From NCBI GenBank assembly GCA_030390025.1, contig CM059430.1, forward strand, positions 72,788,001-72,852,000: a stretch of DNA of 64,000 bases, given 5' to 3'. Below, one piece after another: positions 1 to 36,609 of the stretch. A model generated the notes under the pieces. It saw only the letters and a list, made by a program, of their open reading frames with translations, searched no databases and was not told the origin of the DNA. The stretch comes from Squalus acanthias (lineage: Eukaryota). Each line of letters starts with the position of its first letter. Position 1 is the stretch's first letter. A program made the translations under genes and the position numbers.

Positions 1-204
1 TAGGTGCCAGCTGTACTGGAACAGCTTGTCTCTTTGCAGGGCTAGTTCTAGAGCACTGTCTTCAGCTGCACAGAAGGGACATTTTTGTGACCAACAGATT
101 TAGCTGTGTCTAGTGCACTCAACTTTTCTTGATATTCTGTGAGGTGAATAGAATTGGCTTCAGACTGGCATCTCTGGTGGTTGGTAGCTGAGGAAGAAGC
201 CGAG

Positions 205-640
205 AATTACATTATAAATGGTAGGACACTTCGACGTGCAGAAGATCAGATGGGACCTTGGAGAGCATGTCCACAGATCCTTGACGGTAGCAGGACAGCT
301 AGATAAGGTGGTTAAGAATGCATACGGGATACTTGCCTTCATAACCCGAGGCATAGAATATAAGAGCAGGGAGGTTATGCTTGAACTGTATAAAACACTA
401 GTTAGGCCACAGCTAGAATACTAGGTGCAGTTCTGGTCACCGCTTTACAGGACTGATGTGATTATACTGGAGGGGGTTAAGAGGAGATTTACGAGGATGT
501 TGCCTGGGCTGGGGAATTTTATCTATGAGGAAAGATTGGATAGGCTGGGGTTGTTTTATTTGGAACAGAGGAGGCTGAGGGGGACCGAATTGAGGTTTAA
601 AAAGTTGTGAGGGGCCTAGATAGACTGCATAGGAAGGACC
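205..640 (+). mobile_element. CR1 LINE ORF2 C-terminal fragment (paralog ~34488-34920)
   Basis: LYKTLVRPQLEY*VQFWSP...RRFTRMLPGL...YEERLDRLGLF. Confidence 0.85.
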
Positions 641-1620
641 AATGATGTCAATGGTGGGCTACTCTACAGGCATGAGATTTTGCATTGTATCAGGACCACA
701 CCTGTGCTGCTTGTTGTGAGCCAGCTTCCCGTGGAAGAAGAGTGGAATTGGAGTAATATATATCCTGGGCAATGAGTTTCAACCCACACCGTGTATAACT
801 CAGCTTACCAATGTGTGAACGATGAAAGGAAGAATTAGATAATTAGGGCAAGAAAGAGAAGTGGCTGCGAGGGGCAGCAGCAGTTTTTGCGGGCGTGAGG
901 GTAAGCAAAATGGAGGTGCAGTAAGGACTTATGGGCAGCTATGGCAATTGGGGGTGAGATGGATTAAGAATACTGAGATGAAAGTAAACCCCTTCATGGT
1001 AGTGCAGAAAGTATGAGAGAAATGACGGCGAGCTTTACATTGGCACTTCTGATGAGATCATTAATGCCAGTAATTACCACGCCTGTTCGGCCGAATGTAT
1101 GCTGTAACTTCGGTGGAAAACTGAGGAAAGCCTGCGGAAATTCTAAAGCAAAGTGTCTTTCTGCACTGCAGCCTGGTCCGGGAGATAATGCTAATCACAT
1201 TAATGTATGATGCCTCTCTTGTCATGCCCATACCCCAGGCAGCTTTAGTGCAGGCTGTGGACCTTTGTAAGTGGACGTCTTTCGTATTGAGAATCTGTTC
1301 CACCAGCATTTACAGAGCTGTATGTGAACACCTCTGGACCTTGAATTGATTCTTCTTAGCATAAGACATCACCCTGAAGCGTCACCGCGTTGTTTCCATG
1401 TTTTGGTCAAAAGATGCACCTCCCCATTAAGCTGCTGCAGCACATAACAGCACTCAGCAGCACATGATTTCCCACTTTATAATCGGCGAATTGCCTACAG
1501 AAAGCGCGTGTCGTGCTGGCAGTTCAGCTCAACCTGCAAATGCGGGACAACAGAGAAGCTGGGAATGGTTTACCGGCTCCTCTTCTCGTTGGCTGTTGTC
1601 CTCACCCCGCTCACCTTCCC
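641..1620 (-). mobile_element. Decayed Harbinger Myb/SANT-gene remnant (paralog ~34920-35900)
   Basis: TKAAW...INVISIISRTRLQCRK resembles the W...VNA...RT..QCRKK Myb-like motif also seen at 26.8 kb and 53.8 kb. Confidence 0.5.
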
Positions 1621-2526
1621 GCCAATGCCTCGAAGTACAACTTGCAATTATACAGCGCCTTTAATGTACCAAAACTTCCCATTGCGCTTCACAGGAGCGT
1701 ACTCAGACAACGAAATTGACTAGGGAACCAAAGAAGGAAACGTTAGGAGAGGGGACTAAAACCTTGATCAAAGAGGTAGGTTTACGGAGCATTTTAAAGG
1801 ATGAGAGAGATGTAGAGAAGTGTCGGGAGTAAATTCCAGCGTTGTGGGATTATACATTTGAGGGCTCGGCACACCATGGTGGGGCGAAGGTAGTCGGGAA
1901 TCCGAAAGTGCCGGAATTGGAATAATGCAGGTTTCTGTGCTTATTAAAGGGCCGGAGAATGTTGAAGAGATTAGCAGGGGCGTGGTTATGGAGCGATTTG
2001 ATACAAAAACAAGATTTTAAATTGTCAAACGAGGAGAGTAAAACCGATCTCATTGTTTCACAGGAGACAACAATATTTGTACGGAAACCCCATAAGCATG
2101 AATGGGAATAACCCCCAAAAATACACCTCGACATCAACTTAAAAAAGCCATCGCATATTTAAAATTCATTAAAAGCCATTTCATTAAATATTTAAAGCAA
2201 AAACTTTTTTTTAGAAAAATACATTTAAAAGTTTTAAAACGGCTATAGTTTTTAAATGTATAAATTATTTATAAAAGTAGATTTTTCTGTTTTTTAAATC
2301 TCTTACGCTATTAAAAGCAGGTCTTGCGCCTACTTTTGCCAGGCGTAAGAATTTCACAGGCAGTCGCTGGGCAGAAGTTATGCAAATCACCGCCCATGTA
2401 TGCACTTTTCGCGGGGACGTGGAGGATCTTGACAGATCGCAAGTTGCGGGTTTCAGCGCATGCATAAACCCGGGAAGTTGTGCTGCCCCGACGGGTGCAT
2501 ACACACCCTTAGGGGCCGCAAATAAT

Positions 2527-3290
2527 GGCCCAGAAATTAGACTTCGATGTTTGCCGCAGGGGTAAGGATCGTGCGCGATCTTACCTACCGCGCCTGCCTT
2601 TATTGTTCGGGCCCACACGAACTTCTGGTCCTGGGGCTCTCCCTGGTGCCGGCGCTCAGTGTGTGCGTGTCCCAGAGGCGCAGTTAGTTCGATGCGACCT
2701 CTGGGATCACGTGGGACAGTTAGAGCCAATGGCAGCACACCATCTTTCATTCATATTTTTTGACAGGAGAACTGTCAAAACTATGAATACAACTTGCCCC
2801 CAAAAGAACAGCTAAACCTCAATTAAATTAAAAAAAAACCATCAGATTAATAAAATAACTATAGTTAAATAAATTAACCACTTTAAACAAAAAATTTAAA
2901 TTTTTGAAAAAATTTAAATTCTTTTTAAAAGTTATAAAAATAAACTTACCTTTCTTTAAAGTCTCTAATAAAGATAAACCTGTTGAAAAAAAATTAAAAT
3001 AATACTTAATTAACTACTTACCTTGCTAAAAGGGGGTCTTACGCCTCCTTTTTTCATGTGTAAAATCTTCCATTCTGTCCCTCGCGTTCAAAACTGAAAA
3101 AAAAACTAATTGTGCTGCGTGCGCACAGCCTGTCATGCGCACGCGGTTCACTTAGGAACCGCCCCCTTCGCAATATCGGAAGTGCCGGTTTCCCGCGCAT
3201 GCGCAGTGCATGCAGGAAACCGGCACTTCGGGACCGAATACGGGTGAGTGCACAATGCGTACTCTCCCGTATTCGCCGAATTTCTGGGCC
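2527..3290 (+). mobile_element. Harbinger-type MITE (~760 bp) between older MITE fragments (~2040-2520, ~3300-3826)
   Basis: Perfect TIR GGCCCAGAAATT/AATTTCTGGGCC, flanks aat/tat, GC-rich arms, AT-rich core. Confidence 0.9.
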
Positions 3291-3890
3291 TATATCACAT
3301 TATGCTTCTGGGGATTCGATTTACGTAGGGAATCCCCATAAGCACAATAGGAATCCCCTAAAAAACAGACTTTCACAACACTTTAAAAAAATCATCACAT
3401 GTTCAAAATTTATTATAATACAATTTAGTTAAACATTTAAAACAAATACTTAATATTTTTTAAATATATTTAAACATTTTTCAAGGGACCAAAAATAACC
3501 TAAACAACTTTTAAAGGTCATTATTTGTTTAAATCATTTAAAAAGATTTACTTTAATATTTGATAAATCCTTACGCTGGTAAAATAAGGCCTTATGCCTG
3601 CTTTGACATGGCCTAAGGTTTTCATGGCATTCGCTGGGCAGTAGTTGGGCAATTAGTGAATGTCCATTTTCTGCACATGCGGATGATCTGTCAAGCTGAA
3701 ACTTGACAGATCGCAAGTTCCGGGTTTTCACGCAGGCGTATCGCATGCAGAAACCTGGAACTTGCAGGGCACTTACGGCTGCGTACGCTGTACGTACCTG
3801 GTCATTGGCTCTGGAAAATCTGGGCCAATAGCGTCCTAAATTTAAAGAAAAAAGGAATACCAAATTAGTTCCCTCCAACATGTTCTATAG

Positions 3891-4036
3891 CTTTCCCAGC
3901 TCCGTTACGGATCATTTAGCTGAAGAGAACTCATCTGCTCTGACTCTACTCTGTAAAAGGACAGAGTTCTGCCCGGAGTCTCTCACCTTCACTTAGTATG
4001 AAGATCACACGAACAAAGTGACTGGGATCAACACAG
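3891..4036 (+). pseudogene. Truncated, frameshifted C1-set exon of a related receptor gene
   Basis: Acceptor tgttctatag|. Translates FPAPLRII then SSALTLLCKRTEFCPESLTFT*YEDHTNKVTGINT, aligning with VPPTPLRI..SASLILVCKTAEFYSNDINISWYKDGLKVETGIN of exon 3. Confidence 0.8.
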
Positions 4037-4269
4037 CTTCCTGGACGGGATTCTGTGTTGATCCCAGCTTCCTAGCTTCATTAGGACGGCCAAAATTAGG
4101 ACCACCAGAATCACTCCGCTCCAAACTTTATCCAGGGGATATGGGAGGTGAACAGCATTGGAGAAATGGCAGCAGCTGCCTGAACATCAACTCATCATTG
4201 CAATGCATATGGCATCAAGGAGTCTTCACAATCTGGCGGTCATTTGGGCCAAGTGGAACACCCTTCAGT

Positions 4270-5060
4270 TAGTGATCAATCATCACAGCCGTGCAGGAGT
4301 TCCTAACAGAAGTATCCTCAGCCTAACTATCTTCAGCTGCTCCATCAATGACTTTCACTGCACCATAAGTTCACGAGCGTGGCTGTTAACTGATAATTAT
4401 AGTGTTCAGTTCCAGTGGCAACTCCTTAGCTAATGAATCAGCCTGCAGCAGCAGTAACTTTCAAAAGGGAATTGGATATATACTTGAAAACTAAATACAT
4501 TGCGGAGCTCTGGGGAAAAACCAGGCGAGTGAAGCTATTTGGATAGCTCTTTCAAAGAGCCGACACTGGCACGAAGGGCCGAATGATCTCTCGCTGTGCT
4601 GTATGATTCTATCCTGATTCTATGATACAAGCCCACAACAGGACATTTACAACATTCAATGTGAGGTAACATTCGTGCCACATAAGTGCCAAGCAATGGC
4701 CAGCTCATTGACAAATGAAAAGCATCTCAATTTACACAATGCTTCAACACACCATCTATATCCTGGGCGTGAATCATTGCATAGCAACTTAACCGACACT
4801 GCCATATGAACATCCGTAACTACTGGAGCAGCGCAGAAGCTGAAAGCTTTGCAATGAACTGATTGCCTATCAACCTGTGAGCCTCTTTCTGACATCCACA
4901 AGGCTCAAGTCTAGAATTTGGAAACACAGGCACTATTCGCCCGGATGGGTGCTTCTGAACGCTCAAGTATCTCCGCACTATCCAGAACAACAACAGTTTG
5001 TTTGATTCGCACCCATTTCACAGGAATCCATGTTTGCAGTACGTACTATGTACATGATGC
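4270..5060 (+). mobile_element. Decayed L2 LINE RT fragment with a CR1 3' tail inserted at ~4455-4625
   Basis: VPNRSILSLTIFSCSIND (degenerate VPQGSVLGP.LF..YIND) and a decayed KAQV motif. Paralog ~37445-38210. Confidence 0.55.
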
Positions 5061-6242
5061 ATTGAAACAATCAATTCATCAAAAACTTACCCAGAGTTGA
5101 CAATGGAAAAAAAAAACAAATGTTGAAAGTTTTGACAAGCTTTGGTCCAAAGGAAACATGTTCCTCCCAAGCACGCTACACTTACCAGATGTCATGCTTA
5201 AATTAATCATATGCTGAACTTTTTGGATTAATCTATTTTAAGGTAAATGGGGGTTGATGCAATTCAGTGGTTACTTTTATAAAGCCAACAGATCACCTTG
5301 CCTTATCTCGTTCTTGTCTTGCCATTATTACCTGAGTAATATAGACTTTTGGTGTGGCTTTCAAAGGAAAGAATGCAGGACACGAGGGTGTCGCTATCAG
5401 AAAGTGTTGCCCACATTATTTGCTAACGATTTTTAACCGGCTTATTTATGCCTTATTCAAAATAGGGGCCAAAGGAATGTCATGCACCAGCAAAGTAATG
5501 CTAAGCCAAGTAAATTGTGCTAACTCAATGCCACACATTGTGAAGAGTGAAAAAATCTCAAGATTGACGCCAAAAAAACACTGAAGAGCCAGAATATCAT
5601 TTTAATGATTGGAGAATGCTGCTTTGTTAACCATTAAGCAATTGACTATACAAGAAATAAATTACATTCATCTTGATTTTTTCAAGAAATCAACTTTGTT
5701 CATGTTATGGCTGGATAACGATTTTTAAAATATGTCGTAGCAATTGGTGCATTTCTCTGTTGAAGTATGTTGCCCTGGAAAATCATGGCGGCAGAAGCAC
5801 AACAAAGATACATACAGGGGCAAGTGCCCACGCTTACGCGAGCATTCTGCACGACGACAGTGGTCTCTGCATAGGTGAAAAGATTATGTGATTTTTGTTC
5901 TGGTGTAGATGACCTCGGCTGTTACTCTTTGGGTTTTCAAATGTAACTGAGCATAATCTGAACTCTTGTCCAGAAGTTTAGGCTGTTCTGTTTTCCTGGA
6001 GGCAGCCAATTCCAGCGCAGCGTATGTCAGATTGCTTTCTGTTGTCGCTTGCATTGTCTATAAAGCGAGTGTTGGAGAATATCATTAGTACATGGCCAGT
6101 GCCAGTTTCTTCAGTAGTCAAAGGAGCCATTACATTTAAGAAAGTCAACAGGTAATGGGATTTAAATATAATGAGCAAACTAATTTATTTACTCCGCTAC
6201 CATGGGTGACCTGTGTTTATTTTTTTCTCTACCTACCTGGTC

Positions 6243-6338
6243 CTACAGAGTGCTCTCCTCTTGATACTTAGCGCTTGCAGTTTTCATTGACTTTATCAAA
6301 TCTAATGCAGTGTAAAGCTCCATCTCATTTTCTGATCC
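6243..6338 (-). CDS. Exon 6, cytoplasmic terminal exon with YTAL tyrosine motif (GSENEMELYTALDLIKSMKTASAKYQEESTL*)
   Basis: Acceptor tgatctatgcag|GGA, phase 0. YxxL motif. AATAAA signals at 6216-6221 and 6184-6189. Confidence 0.75.
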   Translation of the reverse strand, partial: GSENEMELYTALDLIKSMKTASAKYQEESTL

Positions 6339-9300
6339 CTGCATAGATCACAAAGTAATGTATATTATATTGTTTACTCATTATCTTAGTGACACTGCAG
6401 TGTATGGATTACTGTTTGAACCGAACGGTCTGTAATACTAAAACCAGAGTTGGAAAGTGAAGCTTTAAAATAAATCCACTTGGAGCTTATTTTATTTCTC
6501 AATAATTTGATAGTATATCATTAGGGTACAATATTATATTTTACTCTCTCAATGTGGACTATAGTCATGTTATAACTTATGGTTGTTACACAAGTTACGG
6601 CTTAGTACGCCCAATGTGTGATAGTACAAAGGCATAATGATACCAAAATATCTTGAGATGTTTTGCTCTTACATTTGCACGCGTGTTTGAAAATAACATT
6701 TTATGTTGTTGCTGATTACATTTGCATTATATATTTTGGAAACAATTTCAATTACATGTGAAAAAAACGCAGTTATTACCTTTAGGAGATAAATTGAATT
6801 TAGAATTGTCTCGCTGAAGTATGAAATAAATATTTACTCTACATTTTAAAGGGTTAATGCTTTCCCTTAAGCTGCAAACTGATGTATTTCAGGCCAGTGG
6901 ATTAATTGCATCTATTAAATTATTTCATGCTTAATCTCACAGCCAATTTCTATTTGCTTAACAAATGTATGAAAAGAACCTACCAGACCTTCTGGATGTG
7001 GTGGTTGTTCCATGGAATCCCCTGTTCCTGGTAATGAATGGACTTGAAAATTTGAACATGAATTATTTTCTAATATCGTTCTCCATGATTCCAAAACCAT
7101 TTAATGTAGGCTTAATACAAAGTCCAACTTTATGTTCAGTAACACATTATAGAACTTGTTGGATATCTCTATTTGTTCAAGCTTTACTTTCAAATTACCA
7201 TCTCCAGATTTTGTTAATTTATTGAGTCCTTCTCGAGCCAATTTCCACGGGGACAAGAGGCTTCCTCCTTTGAGCATGGCCCTGAAATTGCGGATTCTGT
7301 AACGGCATACTCTCAGAGTACATCATTGTATTCATTTTGAAATGCCCCGTAAGTTTAAATTTCCTCAAGTGCGTGCATATATCTGGAAATTGAGGCCTCT
7401 CAATGTACACGTTGACAGGCCATATGCGGGAAACTCGAAAAAGCAATCGCTGGCGCAGAGTTCAGCTGTTTACCCAGCGATTGGCCAGCAATTGCACACG
7501 TAGGTCCTACAGTTGATGAAAGCAGGCATGGGCCTGTTTGTATCAGCGTAAGGAGATATCTAAGGCTTAAATTAAACATTTTTAATATCCAAAAATTATG
7601 CACATATACTGTATTAAATGAGTTTATGCAAATATTAGACTGTATTACAGTTTTAAATACGTATGAAATTATCAAAAAATATTTTTTTACCGAGGTTGGT
7701 GTAATGAAGGTACTTTTGAATAAAATTCCAAATTTCAACATTGTATAATTATTAGATTTGGGAATTCCATTGCATATTATTAGGGGATTCCATTCGAAAA
7801 TGATTGGAGTGGTATTCTGTTTATGGATTGGAGGACTGGGCCCACGTGATGGCAGATACGCTTCCGATGCTCCTGCATCCTGGGATCTGTGGTTCATTAC
7901 ACTGCCTCCGCCTCGAGGCCTGAGACCACAACTTTTCGCAGTCAGGGCAACAGGAGATACTTTCGTAATTGTTTCATGGGTCGGAGGCATTATCCGGAAT
8001 TATGTTTCTGACGGCATTTTCTAGCCTGTTACTTGACGGGAAAGCGCACCGCATTAGACCCTGCTCTCAACTCACTTCCACAAAGGTAAGGCACCAGCAG
8101 AAAGAGGTCAGAGAACTTTAGATACAACACGAGAAACTTTCTCCTACCCACTCCAGAGATGTGAAAGGCAATACGGCCACTTTATTGCTGCGTGACAGAT
8201 TATTAAACTCAGTGCATGGGTTCTAGTACCCCATCTCCCTGGGTCCTATCATCAACAGCACAACATGTCATCCATTTGCAACAGAGAAGAAACAACTTCT
8301 CATTTATGTAGCGCGTTCTAGGACATTAAGACATCCCAATGCGCTTCTCTAACGAAACGTACTTTGGAAGTTTAATCAATGTTGTAACGGAAGGAAAAGC
8401 GGTGGCTAATTGATCACAGAAAGGTCGTGCATACAGTAATGCGATAAATAAGCAATTCAATTGTTTTACCGATGTACATTGCGGATACATGTTTTGCAGG
8501 ACACCGATAGATCTTCCAGTCCTCCTTAAATAGTCCCAAGAGATCTTTTACATCCACTTCAGCGGGCAGACGGAGACTGGTTTTCAGTTTTCATCCGAAA
8601 GCTCTCCCTCAGTACGGCACTGGGTTATAGGCCTAAATTATGTGCTTAACACTTCGACCTCTGATTATGAGGTGAGAATGCTACTACTGATCCAAGGCTG
8701 ACATTAACTTACTTCATCCCTACCCTCACATTATCAAGGAATACTAAAGGACACAATGAAACGGGAAAATTTCATACCTTTACATATTATTGACGGATAT
8801 CGCTTCCTCATGATTATCAGGAGCAACAGAATTAAGATTGCACCTCCTGCGGATCGATAGAGCTTTATGTACCATTTTGCGTTGTCAGCTCCTGTAAAAT
8901 AAATGTCAAAAATAAAGTTTGAAATTGAACATTTTGAGAAAGTTTTCTGCAGACCCACCTTTCAATGTCGCCAACCATTCTTTTGAGTATTTATTTCAAT
9001 TTTCGGGAGTCCCGCAGCATAAAGAGACCGTTAAACATTTCATTGATCTTCTTATTTTTCCTTTTCCATTACAAGTCGTTATGATTACTTTATATCTAAA
9101 GAGAATATTACTACTGCATTTATAAAATGGAGCACAATTAAACCACCAACCCTGAGTAATACTGAAGACGATTATCCTTGGACTTTAGTTTTTATACCAC
9201 ATGTTAACTAGGAATTAGATATGATATTTGATTCCTAGATTAGTCACCAGTGCTTGGTGAACAAGTTGTGCTGTTTCGAGAATTCAACAGCTTCAGTTTC

Positions 9301-12300
9301 ACTTTTACTGAAATCAGCAATTTATTTCCAGAATTGTTTAAACTGAAGTTAAATTCTCAAAATACCATGGCGTGATTATCAGTCCAGGCGTCTGGGTTAC
9401 TTTTTCCGTACAATAACAATTATATTACAATACCTCAGCTCTCTAATTAAAAAAGTTCAGTACAAAGACCTATTCGCCAACAGACCTGGAAAAATCTTCT
9501 TAAATCCATATTCTCAAACTACCATGGCGTGATTATTGGTCCAGGCGTCTGGATTACATAATAATTATACTACAATACTTCCGCTCTCTAATAAAAAAAA
9601 AGTTCAGTACAAAGACCCGTTAGCCAACAGAACTTAAAAAATCTGCTTAATCCATATTTTTTTTTCCTATAAAGAGTGATAACCCATCAATGCTCCTTTA
9701 AAGGATTGTTGTCAAAATTGCGCAAATGCCAAATACGGTCCATAATCTTTGGTATCCGTCTTGGGTCAGATGTTCCTTGCATATGTAATAATTAGATTTT
9801 TACCTCCAGTGCTGTTTGAAATGAATCGGAAGTCAGTTGCCGTTTGGACGGTGAGATGACTTGCCAGGCAGGTATAAATAGTCCCGCTCTTGACAGGCTG
9901 TGACTCTTCCAAAAAGCTGGAAACTTCATACAGACCTTTTTCATTTAGCTGTATTTCGGCGTTTATCCCGGTCTCAACTTTCAAACCATCCTTGTACCAA
10001 GAAATATTGATATCATTTGAGTAAAATTCAGCAGTTTTACACACAAGAATCAAAGAAGCAGATGCATTACGATCAGCCTCATTGCAGTCAATACGCAGTG
10101 GGGTTGGAGGAACTGTGGAACAAGATACAGAAGAGATTAGAACTGACTGAGCTCTTTCAGAATGTATGAAGTAATTCAATTTTTTACCACATCAAAGCCA
10201 ATATGACATTAATACTTTCCAAACATTAATTGGCATGTTTATTTATAGAAACGTTGCGTGGATTTTCAACTTGCTGTCTGGGCGGGAATCAGACGATGTT
10301 GAGCAGCAACTCGGCATCAAGTTGAAAATCTAGCCCATTAATTAAACGATTACAATTTCTATTGAGACATTGGTGAGCTAAACATGATACCGTCGAGATC
10401 AATGCTAGAAAGAATATAGATGGAAGATATAAAGGTTTGGAGGTTTTTGAGATTATTGCAACACATATATATCTCAATATAACTCATAATTAAGAGTAGG
10501 TAGAAGGGGATTCGATGTATAATATGGTTTACAACACATCGCATTTTACAGGGCTAAGCTTTTAATTGAAAAAAGAGACCATTTCACGATCAAATTGTTT
10601 TTATGTTGGTTATAAATTCACATTGAACACCATTCACCTTAACAGGAATATTTTAGAAAGTTGACAGACGGTTTAATAACTGTCGAGACAGTTTTACTGA
10701 GTTAGAGACTCTTTCGAAGTAATTATTGTGAAGAGTGTTGGAAAGGTTAATGTAAAATACAGATAACACGTAGTTTAAGAACGGCAGTAAGTGAAGAACC
10801 ATAGCTGGAGGAAACGCAAAGCAGAAGAAAATAGATCAACGGGAAAGTTACTGAGAACTCGCCGTATAGTGACCCGAAGTTTAAACCAGCATGCTTCAGA
10901 GAGAGATGTAACGGTCCGAAACCAACAATTAACTTGCCATCTAAGGGTAGAGCTTAATCGTCATATTCTCTTTCAAGCGGCAGATTTACCAATGAAAGTC
11001 AAACTTTCGTCCTCGCTAAAATAAACTATACTCAATTATAACCAGCAAATTATGTTACATTGTGATAGTGAATGATGTTCATTGTTTGTTGATTTAGCTT
11101 GTCTACGCTAAATATTAAGAATGCATTCGTAATGATATTAATGCATCTTCAATGTTGAATCTCTTGTTCACCACTAGCTGCAATTTAGTGGATGTAATTA
11201 AGTAAATTGATCAGTGGCAAACCACTTTCACGTTCAATTCTTGGTCGCGTTCTTAATCAATTTTTTAAATGTCTCTTTACCGAACACGTTCGTTCCCAAA
11301 CGTTAATTGAACCGAATTGTGTATAAATAAAGCAAGGTATTGAATACGAATTTCATTGTAAACTCCAAAAGGCTTAAAACAAACGCTTGGCGGCCCCAAA
11401 CATGAATGGCAACAAAAAGAATTCTTGCACCGTGTTTGTTTTGTTTGCTTTAAACATTTAGTGGAATAGTTTCAGGTACAAATTACCGTGGATGAGAAGC
11501 TTTGACCCAGTTCCATTTCCCATCCGACTACCCGGATGTTTCACTCCGCAGCAATAAACTCCGGAGTCCGCGGCGCTGACATTCAGGAGCTGAAGGGAGG
11601 CCTCTCCTTTCTTCAAAGGAAGAAATCGTTTTCTGCTGTCATTAACAGACTGTAGAAACTCATTTTCTCCCAGTTTCCACCAGTAAACAGTCACATCGGA
11701 ATTATCTTGTAAAAAAGGGAACGCGCAATAGAAAGTAATGTTTCCACCTGCGATCACGATGGCGTTTTCAGGGGCTTGGATCACACTTAACTGAACACCG
11801 GAAACAGCTGTGAGGAAATTAATGCCAATAATAATGAGATATATCGCAGACACACAGCTTGCTGACAATAATCATCGACTTCTGATAGTAACGTATATTT
11901 GCTGAGGATTAAATTAAATCTTTGTCAGCGATATCTGATGCTACAAGCGCTGTCTATAACGAATCATTTTAAACGATGAGATCTGTCGGCGCTGCTGTGT
12001 ATTTAATCTGCCTTGCTCCCACATTTCTCTTAAAACTAACCTGATGTGAAGCGCAGACAACACCAGTACATTTTGAATTGCACATGTCTTCACAAACAGA
12101 CAATGATCAGACAATGAAAACATCAACTGAGATATGGTTGATGCGACGCAGGGACTAAGATCTTGATATAACACATAACGAAAGGACTTCCACTAGACTG
12201 TGTTTCTTGTTTTATGTTCAATTGACGTATTAATACATTCTAACACCAGATTCAATTTGAAAATAGTCTCGTGGCACTAGCCATGGACCTTTCATCAACC

Positions 12301-13633
12301 ATGCAATAGAATCCGCATGTCTTTCTCTAGCTCAACATCCTTGAGCAAGGGCACCGGCATCATTCAATGATGCAGTCCAAGTCCCTGTCCAAGTGCAGTA
12401 CACTACAATCGTATATATTAAATTATATCTACCAGATTCGGTTAATTCCTCTATTTAATCCTGTTTTGTCTGCAATCTTATTTTATTTCATCCACGGTCT
12501 TTATATCCGCAGATATGTTCGTGCAATCTACGCACTTGCAAATAACATCCCCATGCCTTTACCCAAATAATTGATAAATAATGCAATGGTCCTAACGATT
12601 AATAACTATATTGTGTGTCCCTGATTAGAACAGGTTCCTTGTCCAACCCTAACCAAATGCTGCTTGCAAATACCACAATGATCAACCTATCTTAGTAGCC
12701 TTTTGTGCAGAACTCTACAAACCTCTGTTTTAGTAGTCTAGATATAAAATATCAATATGATTGCCTCAAATACCAACTTTGTAAATTATTGGGCACAAGT
12801 GCAACGTAGTTTGTGAGACACGACCTTCCATTTCATAAACCATGTCTGGATTCCCTATTAAACTCATCCATTAGAATTGATAGTACAGCGCATCTCTAAT
12901 AATTGTATAGTTCCGAGGTTCTCACTTAGACCATTTTTGAAATTTGGGAAGTCGTGGCCCCCTCACGGGTCCATGGGGAGAAACACAGGCATAATACAAC
13001 TACTAAATTTATAAACAACTGGCTGACATAGCACAGGCCACATTTACTGGAACACACTCGGGAGAATGTCTTCAAGGTCAGCACCCCGATCTATTTTACG
13101 AGCACTAACTGAAGCAAGGACTACATCCGTATCCAGTTCAACAGGTTTACTTTTACCATTAGCCTCATGTCGTCGTATTGGTAAACCAGCATCTTTGAAT
13201 GTAGTGAAGGCAGATGCGAAGTAAGCTTTTAAAACGTTTGACATATCCTGGGACTCCGCCTGAAGCTGCCCAGATGACCGTTCAGTGATCTAGTACTTTC
13301 CTTGGTGAGCCTGTAATGTTCAACATATTTGCAAATTACTAACTATTAATACGACCCCGATTCAATCTTCTCCATCCGTGTCTTTGTCTCTAATCATACA
13401 GATTCTTACATTTATTCTTGGGGCTTGTATAACATTGGACCTCTGAGCGAAAAAGTGACCAACTATAACCAGAAATAACTCCAACACATACCATATACAA
13501 CAGAGTTCAGATTTCCTGCGTCCTCCGTGTCTTGCTTTTGATATATTAAAACATGATATTAATAGAAAGGAAAACTCATGGATATACCTGTATAAGCAAT
13601 CGCGGAGGTCAATATCCAGGGAAACACAATCAT
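6243..13633 (-). CDS. Spliced IgSF receptor gene, copy 1: leader-VJ-C1-TM-cyt1-cyt2, 314 aa (exons 13588-13633, 11487-11807, 9804-10112, 8778-8891, 6984-7042, 6243-6338)
   Basis: All five introns are GT-AG with compatible phases (1,1,1,1,0). Exon lengths 46+321+309+114+59+96 = 945 nt give an open frame ending in TAG. All exons are recognisable in the paralogous copy. AATAAA at 6184-6189 (minus). Confidence 0.85.
6984..7042 (-). CDS. Exon 5, cytoplasmic (VHSLPGTGDSMEQPPHPEGL)
   Basis: Acceptor aaattttcaag|TC, donor CTG|gtaggt. 59 nt converts phase 1 to phase 0. Conserved at 40096-40154. Confidence 0.75.
7375..8027. mobile_element. Older Harbinger-type MITE in intron 4 (paralog ~40490-41147; relative at 20191-20910)
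   Basis: Termini ctggaaattg / cattttctagcc. Same internal layout as 20191-20910. Confidence 0.65.
8285..8703 (-). mobile_element. Decayed tRNA/Deu-domain SINE in intron 4
   Basis: Aligns with the younger copy at 52106-52568. Confidence 0.65.
8778..8891 (-). CDS. Exon 4, transmembrane (GADNAKWYIKLYRSAGGAILILLLLIIMRKRYPSIICK)
   Basis: Acceptor atttattttacag|GA, donor AAAG|gtatga. Hydrophobic run followed by an RKR stop-transfer. Conserved in copy 2. Confidence 0.88.
9353..9658 (+). repeat. Tandem duplication of a ~155-bp unit in intron 3
   Basis: ttctcaa..accatggcgtgattat..gtccaggcgtctgg..agttcagtacaaagacc..gccaacag..atccatatt occurs twice here and once in copy 2 (~42460-42620). Confidence 0.85.
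9804..10112 (-). CDS. Exon 3, C1-set Ig domain
   Basis: Acceptor tcttgttccacag|TT, donor GGAG|gtaaaa. Motifs LVCKTAEFY, ISWYKDG, GLYEVSSFL, YTCLASH. Confidence 0.95.
11487..11807 (-). CDS. Exon 2, V-set Ig domain with germline J-like G strand
   Basis: Acceptor aatttcctcacag|CT, donor CACG|gtaatt. Motifs TFYC, VYWW, ASLQLLNV, DSGVYCC, GNGTGSKLLI. Confidence 0.95.
12270..13450 (-). mobile_element. Old CR1 LINE RT fragment in intron 1 (paralog ~46000-47150)
   Basis: MSNVLKAYFASAFT...GADLEDILPSV matches CR1 MA..LN.YFASVFT...SPGPDGIHPRV. Confidence 0.65.
13588..13633 (-). CDS. Exon 1, signal peptide MIVFPWILTSAIAYT(A)
   Basis: ATG...ACAG|gtatat, 46 nt, phase 1. Hydrophobic; the paralog at 48075-48120 reads MIMFQWILIFANAYT. 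Completed by AVSG at the start of the V exon. Confidence 0.75.
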
Positions 13634-14320
13634 ATTTAGAAATGGAATTGACTGCAGTCTACAGGTAGGCGTCATCCTCTTCTGGTTTGCAAATACTGGC
13701 TTACTCCGAATATGATTCGAACTGAGAGATGATGACGCATGAGTTTAAAACTGCCGTCAGTAACGGAATTAATTTTAAGCGTTAAGATCTGTGCCCGCGG
13801 TTGTGCGTTCAGGATGGACTATAACTTGATCACACTATTTAATCTGAAAGGCTGTAGTAGCAGTAAATATATCTTTAAAGAATTAGATCAAACTTTTGGA
13901 GAAATTATTTAGCTCGACATCTACTGTTGTTGAGAAAGTTTATGAACTCCACAAAAGTCAACACGACTCGCCGATATCACACAGCGCCATGCGAACTTTA
14001 GTACATGCAATTAACTTTAAGCCAAAATGACAGCAAACCACCATCACTACAGCGGACGGCGGCGTCAGACTTGCACCTCCATTGCAATACGCATAAGAAG
14101 CGCAACTTATGCTGTCGGCTCTGCCTGGCATTGCGTACAATGAACGTAGACATTTGTGAGTTTGTGTTTGGCGTTTTCCATCTGCCTGTTTAATAGCTGA
14201 TGATATAATTTGAGCGTCATGTCTCACTCATTTAACAATAATTCAGAAATTATGCTTCATAAAACAGCCGTTGATCAAATTCAGCGTGTAGACAAGAACC
14301 ACCAATGTAAGAAAGATAAT

Positions 14321-15063
14321 GGCCCAGAAATTGATCTCGCTCTGTTCCCGCGGGGGTAAGGCTTCCCCGCGTTCTCTCAATCCGCGTGTGCTTTTTCAGA
14401 TCCAGCTTGCACGAACTTGATGTTCCAGACATCAGTTGGGCAGTGCTTGCGTATCCCACCGGCGTAGTGAATTCGTGCGAGCTGTGGGATCACGTGACTC
14501 AGTTAGAGCCAATGGCAGCACACCATCTTCCATTCATAAGATTCAAATACGTGCTGTGAAATCTATGAATCTTACACCCCCCCAAAATAACAGCTAAACC
14601 TCAATTAATTTTTTTAAAAAACCATCACATTAATAAAATAAGTATAGTTAAATAAATTAACCATTTTAAATAAAAAATTAAATTTTTGAAAAAATTTAAA
14701 ATCTTTTTAAAATTTATAAAAATAAACTTACCTGTCTTTAAAGTCTCTAAAAAAGATATACCTGTTAAAAAAAATTCAAAAAAATACTTAATTCACTACT
14801 TACCTTGTTAAAAGTGGGTCTTACTCCTCCTTTTTCCATTTCTAAAATCTTCAGTACTTACCTGCGCGTCCAAAGCATGAAGTGCACAGCGTGCGCGCAG
14901 CCTGTAGCGCGCACGCGATGCACCGAGGAACCGCCCCCTTTTCAAAAGAAAAAGTGCCGGTTTTCAGCGCATGCGCAGGGCATGCAGAAAACCGGCAATT
15001 GGAGAGAGAGTACGCGAGAGTACGCAGTGCGTACTCCCGCGTCGAGGTATGAATTTTTGGCCC
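14321..15063 (+). mobile_element. Harbinger MITE, subfamily X, ~690 bp upstream of the start codon
   Basis: TIR GGCCCAGAAATT / AATTTTTGGCCC, TSD AAT on both sides. Confidence 0.92.
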
Positions 15064-15379
15064 AATAATATGCAGAACGAGTTTGGATTATTCAGACATT
15101 TTATGAGAACGATCCAGTGCACACTGAAAGAATAACTGTGAAGGTGGGTAGAATTAATCTGCTGTTCAACTGAACCATCTGTCTGTTTTTACATATATAT
15201 TGAGGCATTCTTTGGAATAATTCCAGCTAATAACCATAAGTGTGTCTAGATATTATTATGTTGCAATCAAAAGGCGCATGTTTAGTGTTAGAGCGGCCTA
15301 CACTGAAATGTACTAATAAACCATTTCCGTTCTTTACCCCGAGACAGCAATCCGTTTATGATTTAGTCTATCAAATAGA

Positions 15380-15495
15380 GCAGAAACCGCATTTCAGGTG
15401 TGGCCAAAAATGTCATTTACTCTTTCATCAATGTATGAACGGCCAAAGTTTATTGGCATTTTAATAGGATACGTGCAAGTAGAAACCACAGTTTA
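15380..15495. promoter_or_regulatory. Candidate upstream enhancer: two RUNX sites and an E-box
   Basis: AACCGCA, CAGGTG and AACCACA ~1.8 kb 5' of the ATG, all retained in copy 2 (~49894-49999). Motif match only. Confidence 0.25.
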
Positions 15496-16054
15496 ACCTT
15501 GTGACTCTTGCTGATGTATTGTTTCACTATCTTAACCAGTTACCTTTTTGACCTACATCACGGATTGTAATATCGTGTTGCTAATGTTAACGTAGATCAA
15601 AGATCAGCAGAGGAACAACTACCATCTTTTCTTTGTATTGATCAACATAGTCTTACATTAAACAACCTGTACTTTATGCAACAACCTTCTTCATAAAGCA
15701 CGGGATCATCCCCACGAGGCAGCATGTTTGAGATACAAGAGTTCATTAACGGTCTCACAACATTTTAATTGATTAATCATTGAAATTATGATACTAATCT
15801 GTCCGGCTACAGATTTCTCCGTTTAAGATAAACTGTGTGATGATTCTATATCTACTTCGATGTTAGGTAGATCAAAATCATTTTCAAATGTCTATCATAA
15901 AAAAGTCATAATAATAATAGGTGAAAGTATTTTTAAATATCTGTCATGTCAGAAAGTTAATAATGTATTATGCATTGAAAAGGGTTTTGCATTTTTAGCA
16001 ACCTTGCATATTTAGTGATCATTTTCATCGATTTGAAATTAGCAGTTTGGATCA

Positions 16055-17990
16055 TAAGAACATAAGAACATAAGAAATAGGAGCAGGAGTCGGCCAATCG
16101 GCCCCTCGAGCCTGCTCCGCCATTCAATAAGATCATGGCTGATCTGATCCTAACCTGAAATATAAAGAACACAAGAAGTAGGAGCAGGACCCGGCCACTC
16201 AGCCCCTGGGCCCGCTCAGCCACCCACAGGGCCCTGACCGATCCGAACTCAGCCTCATGTCCAATTTCCTGCCCGCTCACCGTAACCCCTAATTCCCTTT
16301 ACCTCTAGGAAACTATCTATTTCTGTTTTAAATTTATTTAATGATGGAGCTTCCACAGCTTCCTGGGGCAGCAAATTCCACAGACCCACTAACCTCTGAG
16401 TGAAGAATTTTCTCCTCATCTGAGTTTTGAAAGAGCAGCCCCTTATTCTAAGATTATACCCCCCTAGTTCTAGTTTCACACATCCTTGGGAACATCCTTA
16501 CCGCATCCACCCGATCAAGCCCCTTCACAATCTTATATGTTTCAATAAGATCGCCTCTCATTCTTCTGAACTCCAGTGAGTAGAGTCCCAATCTACTCAA
16601 CCTCTCCTCATATGTTCACCCCTTCATCCCCGGGATTAACCGAGTGAACCTTCTTTGTACTGCCTCGAGAGCAAGTATGTCTTTTCAAGTATGGACACCA
16701 AAACTGTACGCAGTATTCCAGGTGCGGTCTCACCAATAACTTATATAACTGCAGCAATACATCCCTGTTTTTATAATCTATCCCCCTAGCAATAAAAGCC
16801 AACATTCCATTGGCCTTCTTGATCACCTGCTGCACCTGCATACTAACTTTTTGATTTTCTTGCACTAGGACCCCCAGATCCCTTTGTACTGCAGTACTTT
16901 CCAGTTTCTCGTCATTAAGATAACAACTTGCTCTCTGATTTTTCCTGCCAAAGTGCATAACCTCACATTTTCCAATATTGTATTGCATCTGCCAAATCTC
17001 CGCCCACTCACCCAGCCTGTCTATATCCCCTTGTCGGTTTTTTATGTCCTCCTCACTTTCTACTTTCCCTCCCATCTTTGTATCATCTGCAAACTTTGAT
17101 ATGTTACACTCGGTCCCCTCCTCCAAATCGTTAATATAGATTGTAAAGAGTGGGGGACCCAGCACCGACCCCTGCGGAACACCACTGGCTACTGGTTGCC
17201 AGTCCGAGAATGAACCATTTATCCCAACTCTCTGCTTCCTGATAGATAACAAATCCTCCACCCATGCCAGAATATTACCCCCAATCCAGTGATGTTTTTT
17301 ATCTTGAGCAATAATCTTTTATGTGGCACCTTGTCGAATGCCTTCTGGAAGACTTAATACACTACGTCCACTGGTTCCCCTTTATCCACCCTGTACATTG
17401 TGTCCTCAAAGAACACAAGCAAATTTGTCAGACATGACATCCCCTTCATAAAGCCATGCTGACTTTGTCCTATTAAATTATGTTTATGTAAATGTTCCAT
17501 TACTGTTTCCTTAATAATAGACTCCAAAATTTTACCCACCACAGATGTTAGGCTGACTGCTCTATAATTCCCAGTCTTCTGCCTACTACCCTTTTTAAAT
17601 AAGGGTGTTACATTAACAGTTTTCCAATCTGCTGGGACCTTTGCTGAGTCGAGGGAATTTTGGAAAATTATTACCAAAGCATCTACAATCCCTACTGCCA
17701 CTTTCCTCAAGACCCCAAGATGTAAGCCATCAGGTCCAGGGGATTTATCCGCCTTGAGTCCCATTATTTTACTGAGTACCAATTCCTTAGTGATTTTAAT
17801 CGTATTTAGCTCCTCCCCCCCTAGACCCCCCTGTTTGTCCAGTGTTGGGATATTCTTAGTCTCCTCTACCGTAAAGATTGAAACAAAATATTTGTTCAGC
17901 ATTTTTGCCATCTCCATGTTTCCCACCATTAATTTCCCAGTCTCATCCTCTGAGGGACCTACGTTTGCCTGAGCCACCCTTTTTCTTTTT
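16055..17990 (-). mobile_element. Young 5'-truncated CR1 LINE (RT domain plus 3' UTR), present only in copy 1
   Basis: KSPGPDG, GNYRAVSLTS, VPQGSVLGP, KFADDTK; (TTCTTATG)n tail; ATCA duplicated on both flanks; empty site at ~50557-50560. Confidence 0.95.
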
Positions 17991-20190
17991 ATCAAAACGT
18001 AGAACTTCAATAACAAACAATGGGCTTGAGCAGAAACAAGGCAGAAGCAGATTACAGTTTATAGGCTCAGTTTTGGAACATAGTAAAGAAAATGTTTCAA
18101 GACCAAAGTTGGAAATAGAATTTATAAAAATATAGATTCATAGAATCATACAGCATATATCCTATTCCCATTTGAAAGTAACTATTGGATATGCTTCCAT
18201 CACCATATCAGGTACTGCATTCCAGATCATACCAAACATAGCATTACATAGAATTACAGCACAGAAACAGGTCTTTCTGCCCAACCAACCCATGCAGAGA
18301 TTCATGTTGCCCTTGAGACTCCTTTCATCGTTCCACATCTAAATCTATCTGCATTATCCTCTATTCCCTTCTCCCTCATATGCTTATGCAGCTTTCCTTT
18401 AAATTCATCCTTATTATTCAACTCAACGACTACCTGTTGTACCGAGTTCCACATTCTCAGTATTCTCTGGGTAAAGAAATTTATTCTGAATTCCCTATTT
18501 GATTTCTTTCCGAAAGTTCGCTAGACCCTAACCTCTGGAATTCCCTGTCTAAACTGCTCTGCCTCTCTACCTCTCTTTCCTCCTTTAAGATGCTCCTTAA
18601 AACATACTTCTTTGACCAAGCTTTTGGTCATCTGCCCTATTTTCTCCTTATGTCACTTGGTGTCAATTTGTTTTGTCTTATAATACTCCTGCGAAGCACC
18701 TTGGGACGTTTTAATACGTAAAAGGCGCTATAAAATAAAAGTTGTTGTTGTTGTTGACTATCTTATATTGATGGCGTCTTGATTTGCTGTTCCCCACAAG
18801 ATTAACCACTCTGTGTTAACTCTATCAAAACCTTTGATAATTTTAAAGACTTCTATTAGGCCACCCCGCAGCCTTCTCTTTGCAAGAGAAAATATACCCA
18901 GCATGTTCATCGTTTCCTGATTGGTAAAACCTCGCAGTTTTGTTGTCATTCTTGTAAATCCTTTTTGCAAGCTCTCCATTGTCTCTACAGCCATTTTATA
19001 ATATGTCAATCAGAATGGTGCATAGTACTCCACGTGTGGTCTAACCAAGATTCAGTACAAGTTTAGCATAACTTTTCTACTTTTCAATTCTATCCCTCTA
19101 GAATTAAAACCACGTGTTTTTTTTCTTTTTTATAGCCTTATTAACTTGAGTCACTAATATTAGTGATTTGTGTAGTTGTATATCCAGATCCCTTTGCTGC
19201 TCTATCCCATTTAGATTAATATTTTCCAACTAACATGTGACCACCTTATTTTTCTTACCAAAATGCAATACCTCATGCTTATCTATATAAAAATTCAGTT
19301 GCCAATTGAATGCCCATTCTGCAAGTTTATTAATGTCTTCTTGTAATTTGTTGCAGTCCTCCTCAATATTGAGTATCCCCCGCCCAATTGAGTGTCGTCC
19401 ACAAATGTAAAAATTGTGTTTTGATTTAAAAGTCTAAATTGTTGATATAAATTGTGAACAACAGTGGTCCCAGCACAGATCATTGTGGGAACTCACTGCC
19501 CACCTTCTGCTAATCTGATTTACTACCCTTTACTCCTACTCTCTGCTTTCTGTCTAGCAACCAGCGAGCTAGCCATTCTTCTAATTCTTCCCTGAATCTG
19601 CATGATGCGACCTTATTGATTAGTCTATTATGTGGTACCTTATCTGAGTTCTTTTGGAAATCTAGATATATTACATCTACTACATTTCCCTTATCTACTC
19701 TCTCTGTTACCTCTTCAAAAATGTAATGAGGTTGGTTAGGCAAGACTTTCACTTTTGAAATCCATGCTAAATATTCGTTATTATATTTTTGGTTTCTAGA
19801 TGTTTTTCTATGTTTTCCTTTAGTAGGAATTCGATTACCATTCCTCACACCGATGTATAGCAGATGCATCTATAGTACACTAGACATTTTATATCACCCT
19901 TCTGAAATATACATATAACTTTAGCTATCTGCCAGTCCTCTGGCACTACAACTTTTTATGACGAATTAACAAATATGTGTATTAATGCCTCTGCTATCTC
20001 GTAACTTATATTCTTTAGAATTAGAGGATGTAATGCATCCCGACCAGAGGTTTTATCCTCTTTAATTTTGATAAATTTATTGAATATTTTTCCCTTTCTA
20101 TTTTAAATGTTGTTATAGCTTTTCTAATCTCATCCTCCGATGTCATTCCACCTAATCCGTCTTCCTGATAAATAGTGAAATAAAATAATA

Positions 20191-21379: not shown

Positions 21380-22697
21380 AAATCAGCTTTTCTCCAATCT
21401 ATTACCTTGGTCTTTGTCATGCTTATCTCCGATTAGCCACCCTCGAGCTTGTTGTGGTTGCTGGAAGAGTGCTGGCACACTGGTCTGGCGCAGGATGAAG
21501 GCAATCGTGGTTGCTGCCTGGACAGTGGGCATTGGTATTAATAATTCACTGTAACTGGTCGCACACCAACTGCACATTAATTGGAAAGTAGCCTTTGCAT
21601 TTCGGGAAGATATCAGGATTGTTATGCGGTGCCCGCAAAGCCACATAGGTGCAGTCGATGGAGCCCTGCACCATGGGGAAGCCTGCCTTGCTGGCAAAGC
21701 CAAATGCACTTTTGTCCTGCTTCTTTCTGTGATTGGGAAGCCAACGTCGTTACTTCTCCTGCTGTGGAGAGCCTCAGTGACCTCCCGGATGCAGCGATGG
21801 GCGGCAAAATGTGAGATGTTAACTATGTATCCTGTTGCAGACTGGAAGGAACCACTGGCGAAGAAATTGGGGTCCAAAGTGACTTTGACTGCCATTGGCA
21901 GAGCCATGGTCGCCGTCATCTGAGGCTTAAGATCTGGTTGCAGGAGGCGGTAGAGTTCTGTGTCCACTTCCTTGGTGAAGCGAAGCTTTCCAGTACACTG
22001 CTCTTTGCTTATTTGCAGCTAGGAAAAGTGCTCTCGGAATACCCTTGGTGGGTAAGGGCTCCTGGTGAGAGCCCTGAAGGCCCTCCTCCTCCCTCTGTGC
22101 ACATGTTTCCTAATATTTCTCTTTGCCTATGCTCCCTCCACCATAGATCCTGGATAGTGAGGTGGCACGGCAGTTCAACCACATTAATGTTATCAGGTGT
22201 AGCACTTCGAATCATTGAAGAATAAATGTAGCTAATTTTAAGTTGCCAGACTACTCCTGATAAAAAAACGTTGAATTTACTGAATGAAACTGTTGCAGTG
22301 GGTGAAACTAACTAAAAACCCACTAAAACTACACTAACCTGACAGCTGCGAGTGATTACTGATGATCGCTTTAAATAAGGTCCCTGGAGCCGGCTTCCTG
22401 GTGCTCACGGCAGCTCTCCCTGTTGGTGTTTACTCCAGGCAATGAGGTAAGTGTTGATAATCAATTTTGCAAATTGGGCGGTCAGTGAACATCCCACACT
22501 CACTGACGCCACAATCTACCTGGCGTGGTCACTCTCGGCAATACCTCTTACCGGCGGTGCTTCATGGAGTGGGGGTTGGGGGCGGATTTGGCGTGCGGTG
22601 CTGGATATGCCTCGTCCCGGCGATACTGGTCTAGTGCCCCATTAGCGCCATCTACAGGCACTAACGGTAAGCGCTAAAGGGACGAATTCGCCCCCCC
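21380..22697 (-). mobile_element. Harbinger transposon fragment with decayed HARBI1-like DDE transposase
   Basis: VKVT...FFASGSFQ...NISHFAAHRCIREVTEAL and frameshifted FP.VQG.IDCT motifs. Confidence 0.85.
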
Positions 22698-33099: not shown

Positions 33100-34480
33100 C
33101 ACGATCATGTTAGTTAGGTAATTGCATATTTTGGGTTTTGTGATGTTTAGGGTGGTGGATTGGCTGCCGATAAAGAGGACCGGTTTGTCCTTGACACTAT
33201 CGAGTCTCTTTATCGTTGGTGCAGCTGTCCAGGCAATTGGAGAGCATGCGCAAACTCTTCTGCCTTACGCTTTGTAGGTGGAGGAAAGGCTATGGGGAGT
33301 CAGCAGTTGAGCTCCTCGTCACAGAATAGCCAACATCTGACCTGTTCTGTTAGCCACGGCATTTATGTGGGTTGTCCATTTGAGCTTCTGGTTATTGGTA
33401 ACCCCTAGTATATTGATGGTGGGGGCTTTGGTGTTGGTAAGGGCTTAGAATGTCAAGCGAGGATGGTTATACCATCTCTTGTTGCAGATCGTCGTTGCTA
33501 GGCACTTGAGTGGCGCGAATATAACGTGCGACTTATCAGCCCCAGTCTGGTTGTTTTCCATGTCTTTCTGCATGTGGGCATGGACTGCTTCGTTATCTGA
33601 GGGATTGTTTCCCTTCTGTTCCTCTTCTCTTTCTCTTCTGACCAAAGTTCCTTCGTTCAGCACTTGAAAATTGTTGTCCCTAGGGGACACGGCCCTGTGG
33701 CACTGATAAGAACATAAAAACATAAGAAATAAGAGCAGGACTAGGCCATACGGCCCCTCGAGCCTGCTCCGCCATTCAATAAGATCATGGCTGATCTTCC
33801 ACCTCAAGTCCACTTTCCCGCTTGATCTTCCCCTAGATTCCAAAATCTATCTGTCTCAGCCTCCTGCAGCGACAGGCTGCGCCTCAGATAATTGGCGTCC
33901 AGCAACCAATATCATCTTTGTGCTAGTTAGTTAATCAGCCATTGGAGTGTTTTTCCCCTGACCGCCATTTTCTTTAGTTGGTGTCACACTGGTTCGAATG
34001 CAGGCTTGATGTCCAGGGCAGTCACTCTCAGCTGATTTTTGGAATTCAGCTCTTTTGTCCATGATTCATCTCAGGCTGTGATGAGGTCAGAGCTGACTGT
34101 TGCTGACGAAACATGAACTAAACAATGGTGAGCAGGTTATTGATGAGTACGTGGCGTTTGATAGCACTATTTCCGAGTCCTTCAGTAATTTTGCGGATGA
34201 TTGAGAACAGGCTCATATTATAGCAATTTTCCAGTTGCATTTGTCTTGCTTTTTGTGAACACAAAATAATTGGGAAGGTTCCAGTGTTGCAGCTGTACTG
34301 GAACAGCTTGTCTAGTTGCAGTGCTGGTTCTGGAGCACCGTCTTCAGCTGCACAGAAGGGACATATTTGTGAACCACAGATTTAGCTGTGTCTAATGCAC
34401 TCAACGTTTCTTGATATTCTGTGACGTGAATAGAATTGGCTTCAGACAGGCATCTGTGATGTTTGGTAGCTGAGGAGGAA
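33100..34480 (-). mobile_element. Decayed L2-like LINE with a CR1 3' tail (33706-33860)
   Basis: Degenerate LINE ORF2-like sequence continuous with the start of the duplicated unit; CR1 tail ataagaacataa..gagcctgctccgccattcaataagatcatggctgatc. Confidence 0.5.
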
Positions 34481-35947: not shown

Positions 35948-36609
35948 AGGCCAGAAATTCGGTTCTCCGGCTTCCCGCGATAGCAAGAATCGCACGCACT
36001 TACATAGCGCACCTGCAGTTGTACTTCGGGCCCGCGTGAAATTCCGATGCTGAGCCTCCTGCAGCTGCCCACGTGCAGTGCTTGCATATCCCAGGGGAGT
36101 GGTTAGTTCGAAGCATCCCCTGGGATCAGGTTGGCCATGGAGAGCCAAACGGAGCAGGGAATCTCCATTCATAGTTTTGACAGGAAGACCTGTCAAATCT
36201 ATAAAGAGAGATCGGCACCAAAACCTCACTAAAAAATCAAATAAAATAAAAAAAGTCAACTTTTTAAAATAACAATAAATTACATAAATTAACTACATTA
36301 AACAAAAATTTTTATTTTTGAAAAAATTAATTACACTTTTTAATGGTGTTAACAATAAACTTACCTTTCATTAAAGTATGTAAAAATGATAAAAATGTTG
36401 AAAGAATGTTTAATTGTGCTTAATTCACGATTTACCTTGTTAAAAGCAGGGCATGCTTCTCCTTTTTTACTGCGCAGCTTCTCCGTACTTACCCTCAGAG
36501 AGAAACCTGAAAAGGTCTGTGCGGTGCCTCTCCAGCACATGTGTTTGACCTCTGAACCCCTGCCTTCAGGTAAACGGAAGTTCCGGTTTCCAGCGCACGC
36601 GCAGTGCAA
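35948..36609 (+). mobile_element. Right-truncated Harbinger MITE at a ~1.8-kb deletion in copy 2
   Basis: Left TIR AGGCCAGAAATTCGG after gcctttaat. Sequence rejoins copy-1 homology at ~3436. Confidence 0.8.

Follow-up and report, generated by a model that had tools for sequence, protein, structure and literature searches.

We analysed a 64,000-nucleotide stretch of the Squalus acanthias genome (GenBank assembly GCA_030390025.1, contig CM059430.1, here C6, positions 72,788,001 to 72,852,000; hereafter the window). Its minus strand carries a gene for a membrane receptor with a V-set domain ending in a J-like strand (VJ), a C1-set domain and a transmembrane (TM) segment. This gene is a recombinant: its leader/V half groups with a neighbouring inhibitory receptor gene (L040), and its TM/tail half with a lineage that combines a membrane arginine with a premature stop codon. 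On balance we favour the reading that it encodes the activating partner of the neighbouring inhibitory receptor, which would signal through an adaptor of the FcR-gamma/CD3-zeta type and not through its own tail.

Gene structure

An earlier note, made from the letters alone, had described an intact V(J)-C1-TM gene with six exons, a 314-amino-acid open reading frame and its own signalling tail. The ectodomain and TM part of that description was confirmed. Exons 1 to 4 of the gene (13633-13588, 11807-11487, 10112-9804 and 8891-8778, minus strand) are bordered by AG/GT, and Pfam recognised the V-set (E 3e-9) and C1-set (E 2e-10) domains, both above the curated cut-off. Exon 1 (13588-13633) encodes the 46-nt leader, with its ATG at 13633, and has the same length in four modelled paralogs. 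Exon 2 (11487-11807) encodes the V-set domain with the J-like G strand; its structural model had a predicted local distance difference test (pLDDT) value of 83 with V-set matches. This domain has an additional Cys next to the second canonical Cys, and an NGT sequon at the Phe/Trp position of the J-like strand. Exon 3 (9804-10112) encodes the C1-set domain, with one additional Cys near its start. Exon 4 (8778-8891) was assigned to the TM segment by the gene model and by comparison with P0003 of Heptranchias perlo, the closest named homolog (72% identity in V, 115-residue tail). At the outer end of the TM helix, codon CGA (8854-8856) specifies Arg238, which is followed by 15 uncharged residues; two paralogs bearing immunoreceptor tyrosine-based inhibitory motifs (ITIMs) have GGA (Gly) at this position.

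Searching P0003 against the window yielded a 44-nt exon 5 (6984-7027), a 102-nt exon 6 (6237-6338) and an additional exon 7 (5884-6057), all on the minus strand. The 44-nt exon 5 has a CAG acceptor, matches P0003 and was retained in five of five copies examined, whereas a 314-amino-acid product would need a 59-nt exon (7042-6984) with an AAG acceptor. Exon 5 is therefore probably 44 nt long, giving a predicted product of 309 rather than 314 amino acids. Exon 6 contains an in-frame TAG (6245-6243, codon 310), and its GT donor (6237) lies 6 nt beyond this stop. The earlier note overlooked exon 7 (6057-5884), an open frame with two ITIM-consensus motifs (LTYAAL, SDYAQL) that is 65% identical to the tail of P0003 and is translated only if exon 6 is skipped. 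The gene thus has seven exons, and the TAG is a Tyr-to-stop change in exon 6. Since the TAG replaces the TAC of two paralogs and the Tyr of P0003, the residual tail is, judged from these alignments, a truncated inhibitory tail and not the independent signalling tail that had been proposed.

As the earlier note had also stated, recombination signal sequences (RSS) were absent from the V/J border: a scan of 5501-14500 found no RSS-like site at V, at C1 or between the two, and its three weak matches all lay in intron 5/exon 6. There was no Rfam match within the 64-kb window.

Neighbouring copies and mosaic history

Seven V-C1 copies, the window gene included, lie at 72.76-72.97 Mb of C6. The TM exon and exon 6 were located in six of them; the 3' exons of the seventh, L042, lay outside the stretch that was fetched. 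Both Gly copies (L039 and L040) have TAC in exon 6, an intact 369-amino-acid frame, an ITIM tail and the exon lengths of the window gene. All four Arg copies (the window gene, tandem copy 2, L041 and L043) carry CGA together with TAG, and because the stop is present in all four, it is not a base-call error. Gly and Arg also alternate at the same TM position elsewhere in the family (L051/L052 versus L055, and P0020 versus P0021).

The window gene was 98.1% identical in the V exon and 86.8% identical in the TM exon to L040, the intact ITIM gene 166 kb distant. Informative quartet sites in the 5' half of the gene favoured L040 by 60:12, and those in the 3' half favoured L041 by 95:6 (Fisher p 4e-27). 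The result was unchanged with two other third taxa, and identifies the window gene as a recombinant of an L040-type leader/V half with a TM/tail half of the Arg-plus-stop lineage. V-exon exchange among paired receptors is described for CEACAMs in an excerpt of PMC5112662.

The window itself contains a tandem segmental duplication (8-18500 versus 34290-51050; period ~34 kb, ~90% identity). Copy 2 (39040-48120, minus strand) is a pseudogene with the same Arg and TAG, a V exon split by an insertion and a 1-nt deletion in exon 6. The insertion is a ~760-bp repeat (44715-45472) placed after approximately residue 22, not at the V/J border, and its ends are unlike an RSS heptamer. L043, also a pseudogene, has a V-exon insertion at the same point, and the insertion is therefore older than the duplication that separated these two copies. 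Each tandem unit also holds one degenerate partial C1 exon of the family on the plus strand (3889-4041 and 37100-37213). Elsewhere in the window, a 700-bp repeat is present many times, and the list of open reading frames, inspected by eye, included LINE-like reverse-transcriptase frames and Harbinger-like transposase remnants (16608-18058, 21383-22018 and 32093-32635).

Proposed activating receptor and alternative readings

Two features of paired receptors are present in the window gene: a near-identical ligand-binding domain in a clustered ITIM partner (L040), and a charged TM residue without a translated ITIM (Arg238, with the TAG ahead of the ITIM exon). We hypothesize that the gene is expressed on leukocytes and that its transcript would escape nonsense-mediated decay, because the stop is only 6 nt from the last junction. 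Arg238 would then pair with the TM Asp of an FcR-gamma/CD3-zeta-type adaptor; its position presumably matches that in FcR-gamma-coupled receptors. The genome contains two PF11628 exons with a TM Asp, which we labelled FcR-gamma-like and CD3-zeta-like from their PF11628 matches. A complex prediction that combined the TM exon of the window gene with a pair of FcR-gamma-like ones returned a score of 0.02. Through its near-identical V domain the receptor would share a ligand with L040, so that one ligand would cause activation here and inhibition through L040, and a pathogen or an MHC-like ligand would be the driver.

Several observations weigh against the proposed activating receptor. Three of the four Arg-plus-stop copies (copy 2, L041 and L043) are broken by insertions, frameshifts or stops and the window gene alone is intact, so it too may be decaying. 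The direction of exchange between the window gene and L040 is not fixed. Exon 7 of the window gene is open with good splice sites, and skipping of exon 6 preserves the frame. Positive selection on V exons was unsupported (pooled pN/pS 0.54; 11 disjoint pairs, 23 sequences), and the ratio of ~2 between the V exons of L039 and L040 was not significant (p 0.19). Finally, homolog P0025 combines the Arg with a long tail containing LAYASL, that is, Arg without tail loss.

The alternative that survives best makes the window gene a decoy without signalling function, or a copy turning into a pseudogene, whose protein may bind ligand but recruits nothing. We regard this as possible but clearly less likely than an activating receptor. 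The broken state of the three sister copies speaks for it, as does the segmental duplication that is rife in the cluster. However, all six coding exons of the window gene and their splice sites are intact, and its C1 dN/dS was ~0.5-0.6 against both inhibitory paralogs, albeit from few changes. Moreover, Arg and stop occur together, and it is the V half that an intact inhibitory gene shares.

It is improbable that the main product is instead an inhibitory or dual receptor, in which exon 6 would be skipped to give 335 amino acids with both ITIMs and the membrane Arg. Exon 5 does join exon 7 in frame with a single terminal stop, and exon 7 is open in both the window gene and copy 2. Against this, exon 6 has retained canonical splice sites, and exon 7 is damaged in L041 (11-nt deletion) and L043 (acceptor lost). 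Its dN/dS between the window gene and L039 was near 1, which is little informative, as the value is near 1 between two intact paralogs as well. AATAAA hexamers in intron 6 were considered as a sign that exon 6 is terminal, and this was ruled out since inhibitory L039 shares them.

Family size, distribution and paired forms

The earlier proposal of an expanded shark VJ-C1 family was borne out. Searched against its own genome, the V exon gave at least 127 matches when the best 150 of 205 candidates were scored, and 122 of these lie on C6 (57.5-76.9 Mb); the C1 exon gave at least 143 among the best 150 of 425, with 131 on C6. Both numbers are minimum values, with broken copies among them. A profile search returned 71 proteins; 70 are from sharks, rays or Callorhinchus, with a single chromosome-scale record for each species. 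Their automatic names are misleading: SIRP- or light-chain-like, as foreseen, and also tapasin-, B7H6- or CD276-like, with SIRP-like the commonest.

When the family V profile was compared with 1.84 billion representatives and rescored by domain, full-length members reached 80-125 bits and the best outsiders 50-54 bits among the best 150 matches; weaker single-domain relatives may exist in bony vertebrates. Ten of these proteins were looked up. The four divergent members were all chondrichthyan, and three of the best outsiders were multi-V turtle proteins. These turtle proteins (P0124, P0103 and P0154), the top outside matches to the V profile, have three to five tandem VJ-type domains and are named pIgR-, FcRL5- or titin-like.

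Paired forms occur throughout the family. An ITIM motif or one of the switch type (ITSM) followed the TM segment in 31 of the 71 homologs, and eight had a P/H-R-F/L TM start with the Arg, followed by a short tail. Another TM exon type, older and short-tailed, begins with Arg and ends with Asp-His/Tyr (L044, L045, L046, L050, L076, L120, L123, L125). It sits behind V-C1 exons of several subfamilies; one such exon lies ~8 kb behind the C1 exon of L042, which suggests more exon shuffling.

The protein atlas returned only generic V-C1 clusters for the family. The literature searched contains no description of it, but key papers on related genes were not covered and a prior description is quite possible. 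One supplement file of PMC3964593, which may not be its immunity note, does not mention SIRP, NKp30, B7H6 or NCR3. The kind of gene is known, namely non-rearranging VJ-C1 receptors with paired signalling forms (SIRP, NITR, PRARP), while the family itself, with its size and with the switch to an activating form that is captured here, is apparently undescribed.

Antigen-receptor likeness

The earlier note had likened the gene to antigen receptors. The likeness held for the exon plan but did not extend beyond it. The residue before GxG was Phe/Trp in none of 62 aligned members, Asn in 53 and part of a glycosylation sequon in 46, whereas both Gly of GxG were kept in 61. As Phe/Trp is missing and a glycan at this site would hinder pairing, these residues argue against V-V pairing of the Ig/T-cell receptor (TCR) type. 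There are also no split V and J segments with RSS as in Ig/TCR, but a single VJ exon. The matches of the V model to vNAR, NKp30 and TCR V domains were 19-26% identical, and a two-domain model of P0003 matched light chains; neither model discriminates.

In the C1 tree (51 rows, with 16 of 27 family rows used) the family formed one clade (100/99) outside Ig/UrIg (95/91). In the V tree a weakly supported branch (76/71) set it off, with the turtle proteins and a second VJ-C1 family, described below, close by. Approximately unbiased (AU) tests on 38 rows rejected none of four sister groups (SIRP, Ig/UrIg, B7H6 and the second VJ-C1 family; p 0.23-0.61). TCR, tapasin and CD8 domains were absent from these trees, and own-genome rows carry labels from our reading of the sequences.

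An antigen-receptor-like chain that forms an Ig/TCR-type dimer and relies on its own short tail (ELYTAL) for signalling is very improbable: the V(J)-C1-TM exon plan, the top structural matches to antibody light chains, vNAR, NKp30 and TCR V domains, the unpaired cysteines in V and C1 that could link chains and a C-terminal ESTL that we take to resemble a PDZ-binding end are set against the lack of Phe/Trp before GxG, the origin of the tail by truncation of an ITIM tail, and the low identity of structural matches that are dominated by PDB content.

Comparison with known receptors

The family is not plainly orthologous to SIRP, B7H6, NKp30 or UrIg, as the V and C1 trees and genome mapping indicate, in line with the earlier note. 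SIRP shares with it the germline VJ and C1-set ectodomain, ITIM tails and paired forms, and human SIRP-alpha ranked fourth in a PDB profile search (UrIg2 ranked seventh). SIRP has two C1 domains and a central TM Lys for DAP12. Family genes have one V and one C1 exon each within the window, so there is no V-C1-C1 ectodomain, and the window gene has an Arg near the outer TM end in place of the central Lys. SIRP-like V domains scored 22-31 bits against the family V profile, compared with 80-125 bits for full-length members. SIRP domains stood apart from the family in both free trees (C1 sisterhood not rejected, p-AU 0.45), and the family is on C6, not on the NSFL1C contig C11.

NKp30 (NCR3), rank 7 by fold, shares the single-exon VJ with the window gene. 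Its TM Arg couples to FcR-gamma/CD3-zeta, and it has no C1 domain. The family differs in having a C1 domain, and shows neither a V-only ectodomain nor, judged by class I exons, MHC linkage. A V domain that we read as NKp30-like shares C26 with MHC class I exons and groups apart from the family. B7H6 (NCR3LG1) and the tapasin-related protein share the V-C1 ectodomain and are frequent automatic names, but B7H6-like V domains have no GxG strand, unlike the family.

The PRARP/VJC1 genes (Fu 2019 and Ohta 2019, cited in PMC10751288) are similar in being non-rearranging VJ-C1-TM genes with tyrosine motifs. They are reportedly of low copy number. A second V(J)-C1-TM family lies on C5 (145.19-145.38 Mb; L068, L069), ~2 Mb from the CD3-zeta-like exon. 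It evolves slowly (C1 65-88% identical across sharks and rays), has one tail tyrosine and formed its own clade in both trees. It is a possible counterpart of PRARP/VJC1, and a likelier one than the C6 cluster.

According to excerpts of PMC12227049, elasmobranch UrIg and UrIg2 also have a non-rearranging VJ followed by C1, and UrIg has at least three C1 domains, Fc-like dimers, liver expression and linkage to MHC or the antigen-receptor complex (AgRC). The family, in contrast, has tails with tyrosine motifs and only one C1 domain, which falls outside the Ig/UrIg clade. NITRs of ray-finned fish, as far as described in an excerpt of bioRxiv 2021.06.11.448072, are likewise germline VJ receptors whose genes are clustered; they include ITIM, charged-TM and ambiguous forms and are proposed as natural killer (NK) receptors. 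One paper cites no evidence for NITRs in cartilaginous fish.

Chromosomal position and possible origin

None of 50 MHC class I matches was on C6, and MHC linkage of the cluster was rejected on class I exons only. NSFL1C-type exons were found on C11. A coelacanth SIRP-like query had no match on C11 among the best 122 of 835 candidates scored, and 50 kb sampled near NSFL1C, by a splice-pattern screen only, showed nothing Ig-like by eye. Identity of the cluster with the B7H6 locus was also rejected, as B7H6-like exons neighbour KCNJ11 and MYOD1 on C10. At this B7H6-like locus (C10, 45.59-45.67 Mb, and C1615), pairs of C1-type exons that are nearly identical recur many times in tandem.

A FOXL1/FOXC2/FOXF1-type trio is located at 11 Mb of C6, and six classical cadherin tails are spread over 0.5-31 Mb. 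WDR59 and a y+L transporter, for which y+LAT2 (SLC7A6-like) is the best match (226 versus 215 bits), are flanked by family members at 57.5 and 61.2 Mb. We take these genes to correspond to human 16q. In humans, TCR alpha/delta adjoins SLC7A7 at 14q11, and SIRP is on chromosome 20. We tentatively consider, as an unlikely but testable idea, that the cluster is both the large NK/myeloid complex of paired receptors so far missing in cartilaginous fish and a surviving unrearranged sister of antigen receptors and SIRPs, in a human-16q linkage group that is the whole-genome-duplication counterpart of 14q11 and of the chromosome 20 (SIRP) region. The 14q11 counterpart would carry SLC7A7 and TCR alpha/delta, and the shark IgH/UrIg2 complex. 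One pre-duplication VJ-C1 gene would have given rise to TCR/Ig, SIRP and the C6 family, unlike in the published proto-MHC model. Excerpts of PMC12227049 and PMC10751288 derive the antigen-receptor complex from the MHC paralogon. Tables in PMC1867822 and PMC2211742 list MMP14/15/16/24 (14q11, 16q, 8q21, 20q11) as paralogous, and ZFHX2/3/4 at 14q11, 16q22 and 8q21.

The coincidence of the cluster with this 16q/14q11/20 paralogy may be due to chance, because V-C1 genes sit on many chromosomes (contigs C5, C10, C13, C26 and C29). Most of C410 (y+LAT1-like) and of C3778 (LAT2-like by our reading; 100 of 161 kb) contained no Ig exon, and linkage of SLC7A7 to TCR is therefore unshown in this assembly. 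For a possible ancestral link of the family to antigen receptors, the best support is positional and not architectural.

Significance

It is an unsettled question which germline receptors serve NK-type and myeloid recognition in sharks, and the C6 cluster is a concrete candidate: more than 100 VJ-C1 genes, with both ITIM and membrane-Arg forms, of a family that chimaera, sharks and rays share and that is scattered over five misleading database names. In the favoured reading, the window gene would capture how an activating partner arose, through two steps and a recombination, and its matched inhibitory twin L040 simplifies tests of ligand and signalling. If its chromosome is indeed paralogous to the TCR alpha/delta and SIRP regions, the cluster would offer a testable alternative site for the pre-RAG VJ-C1 gene.

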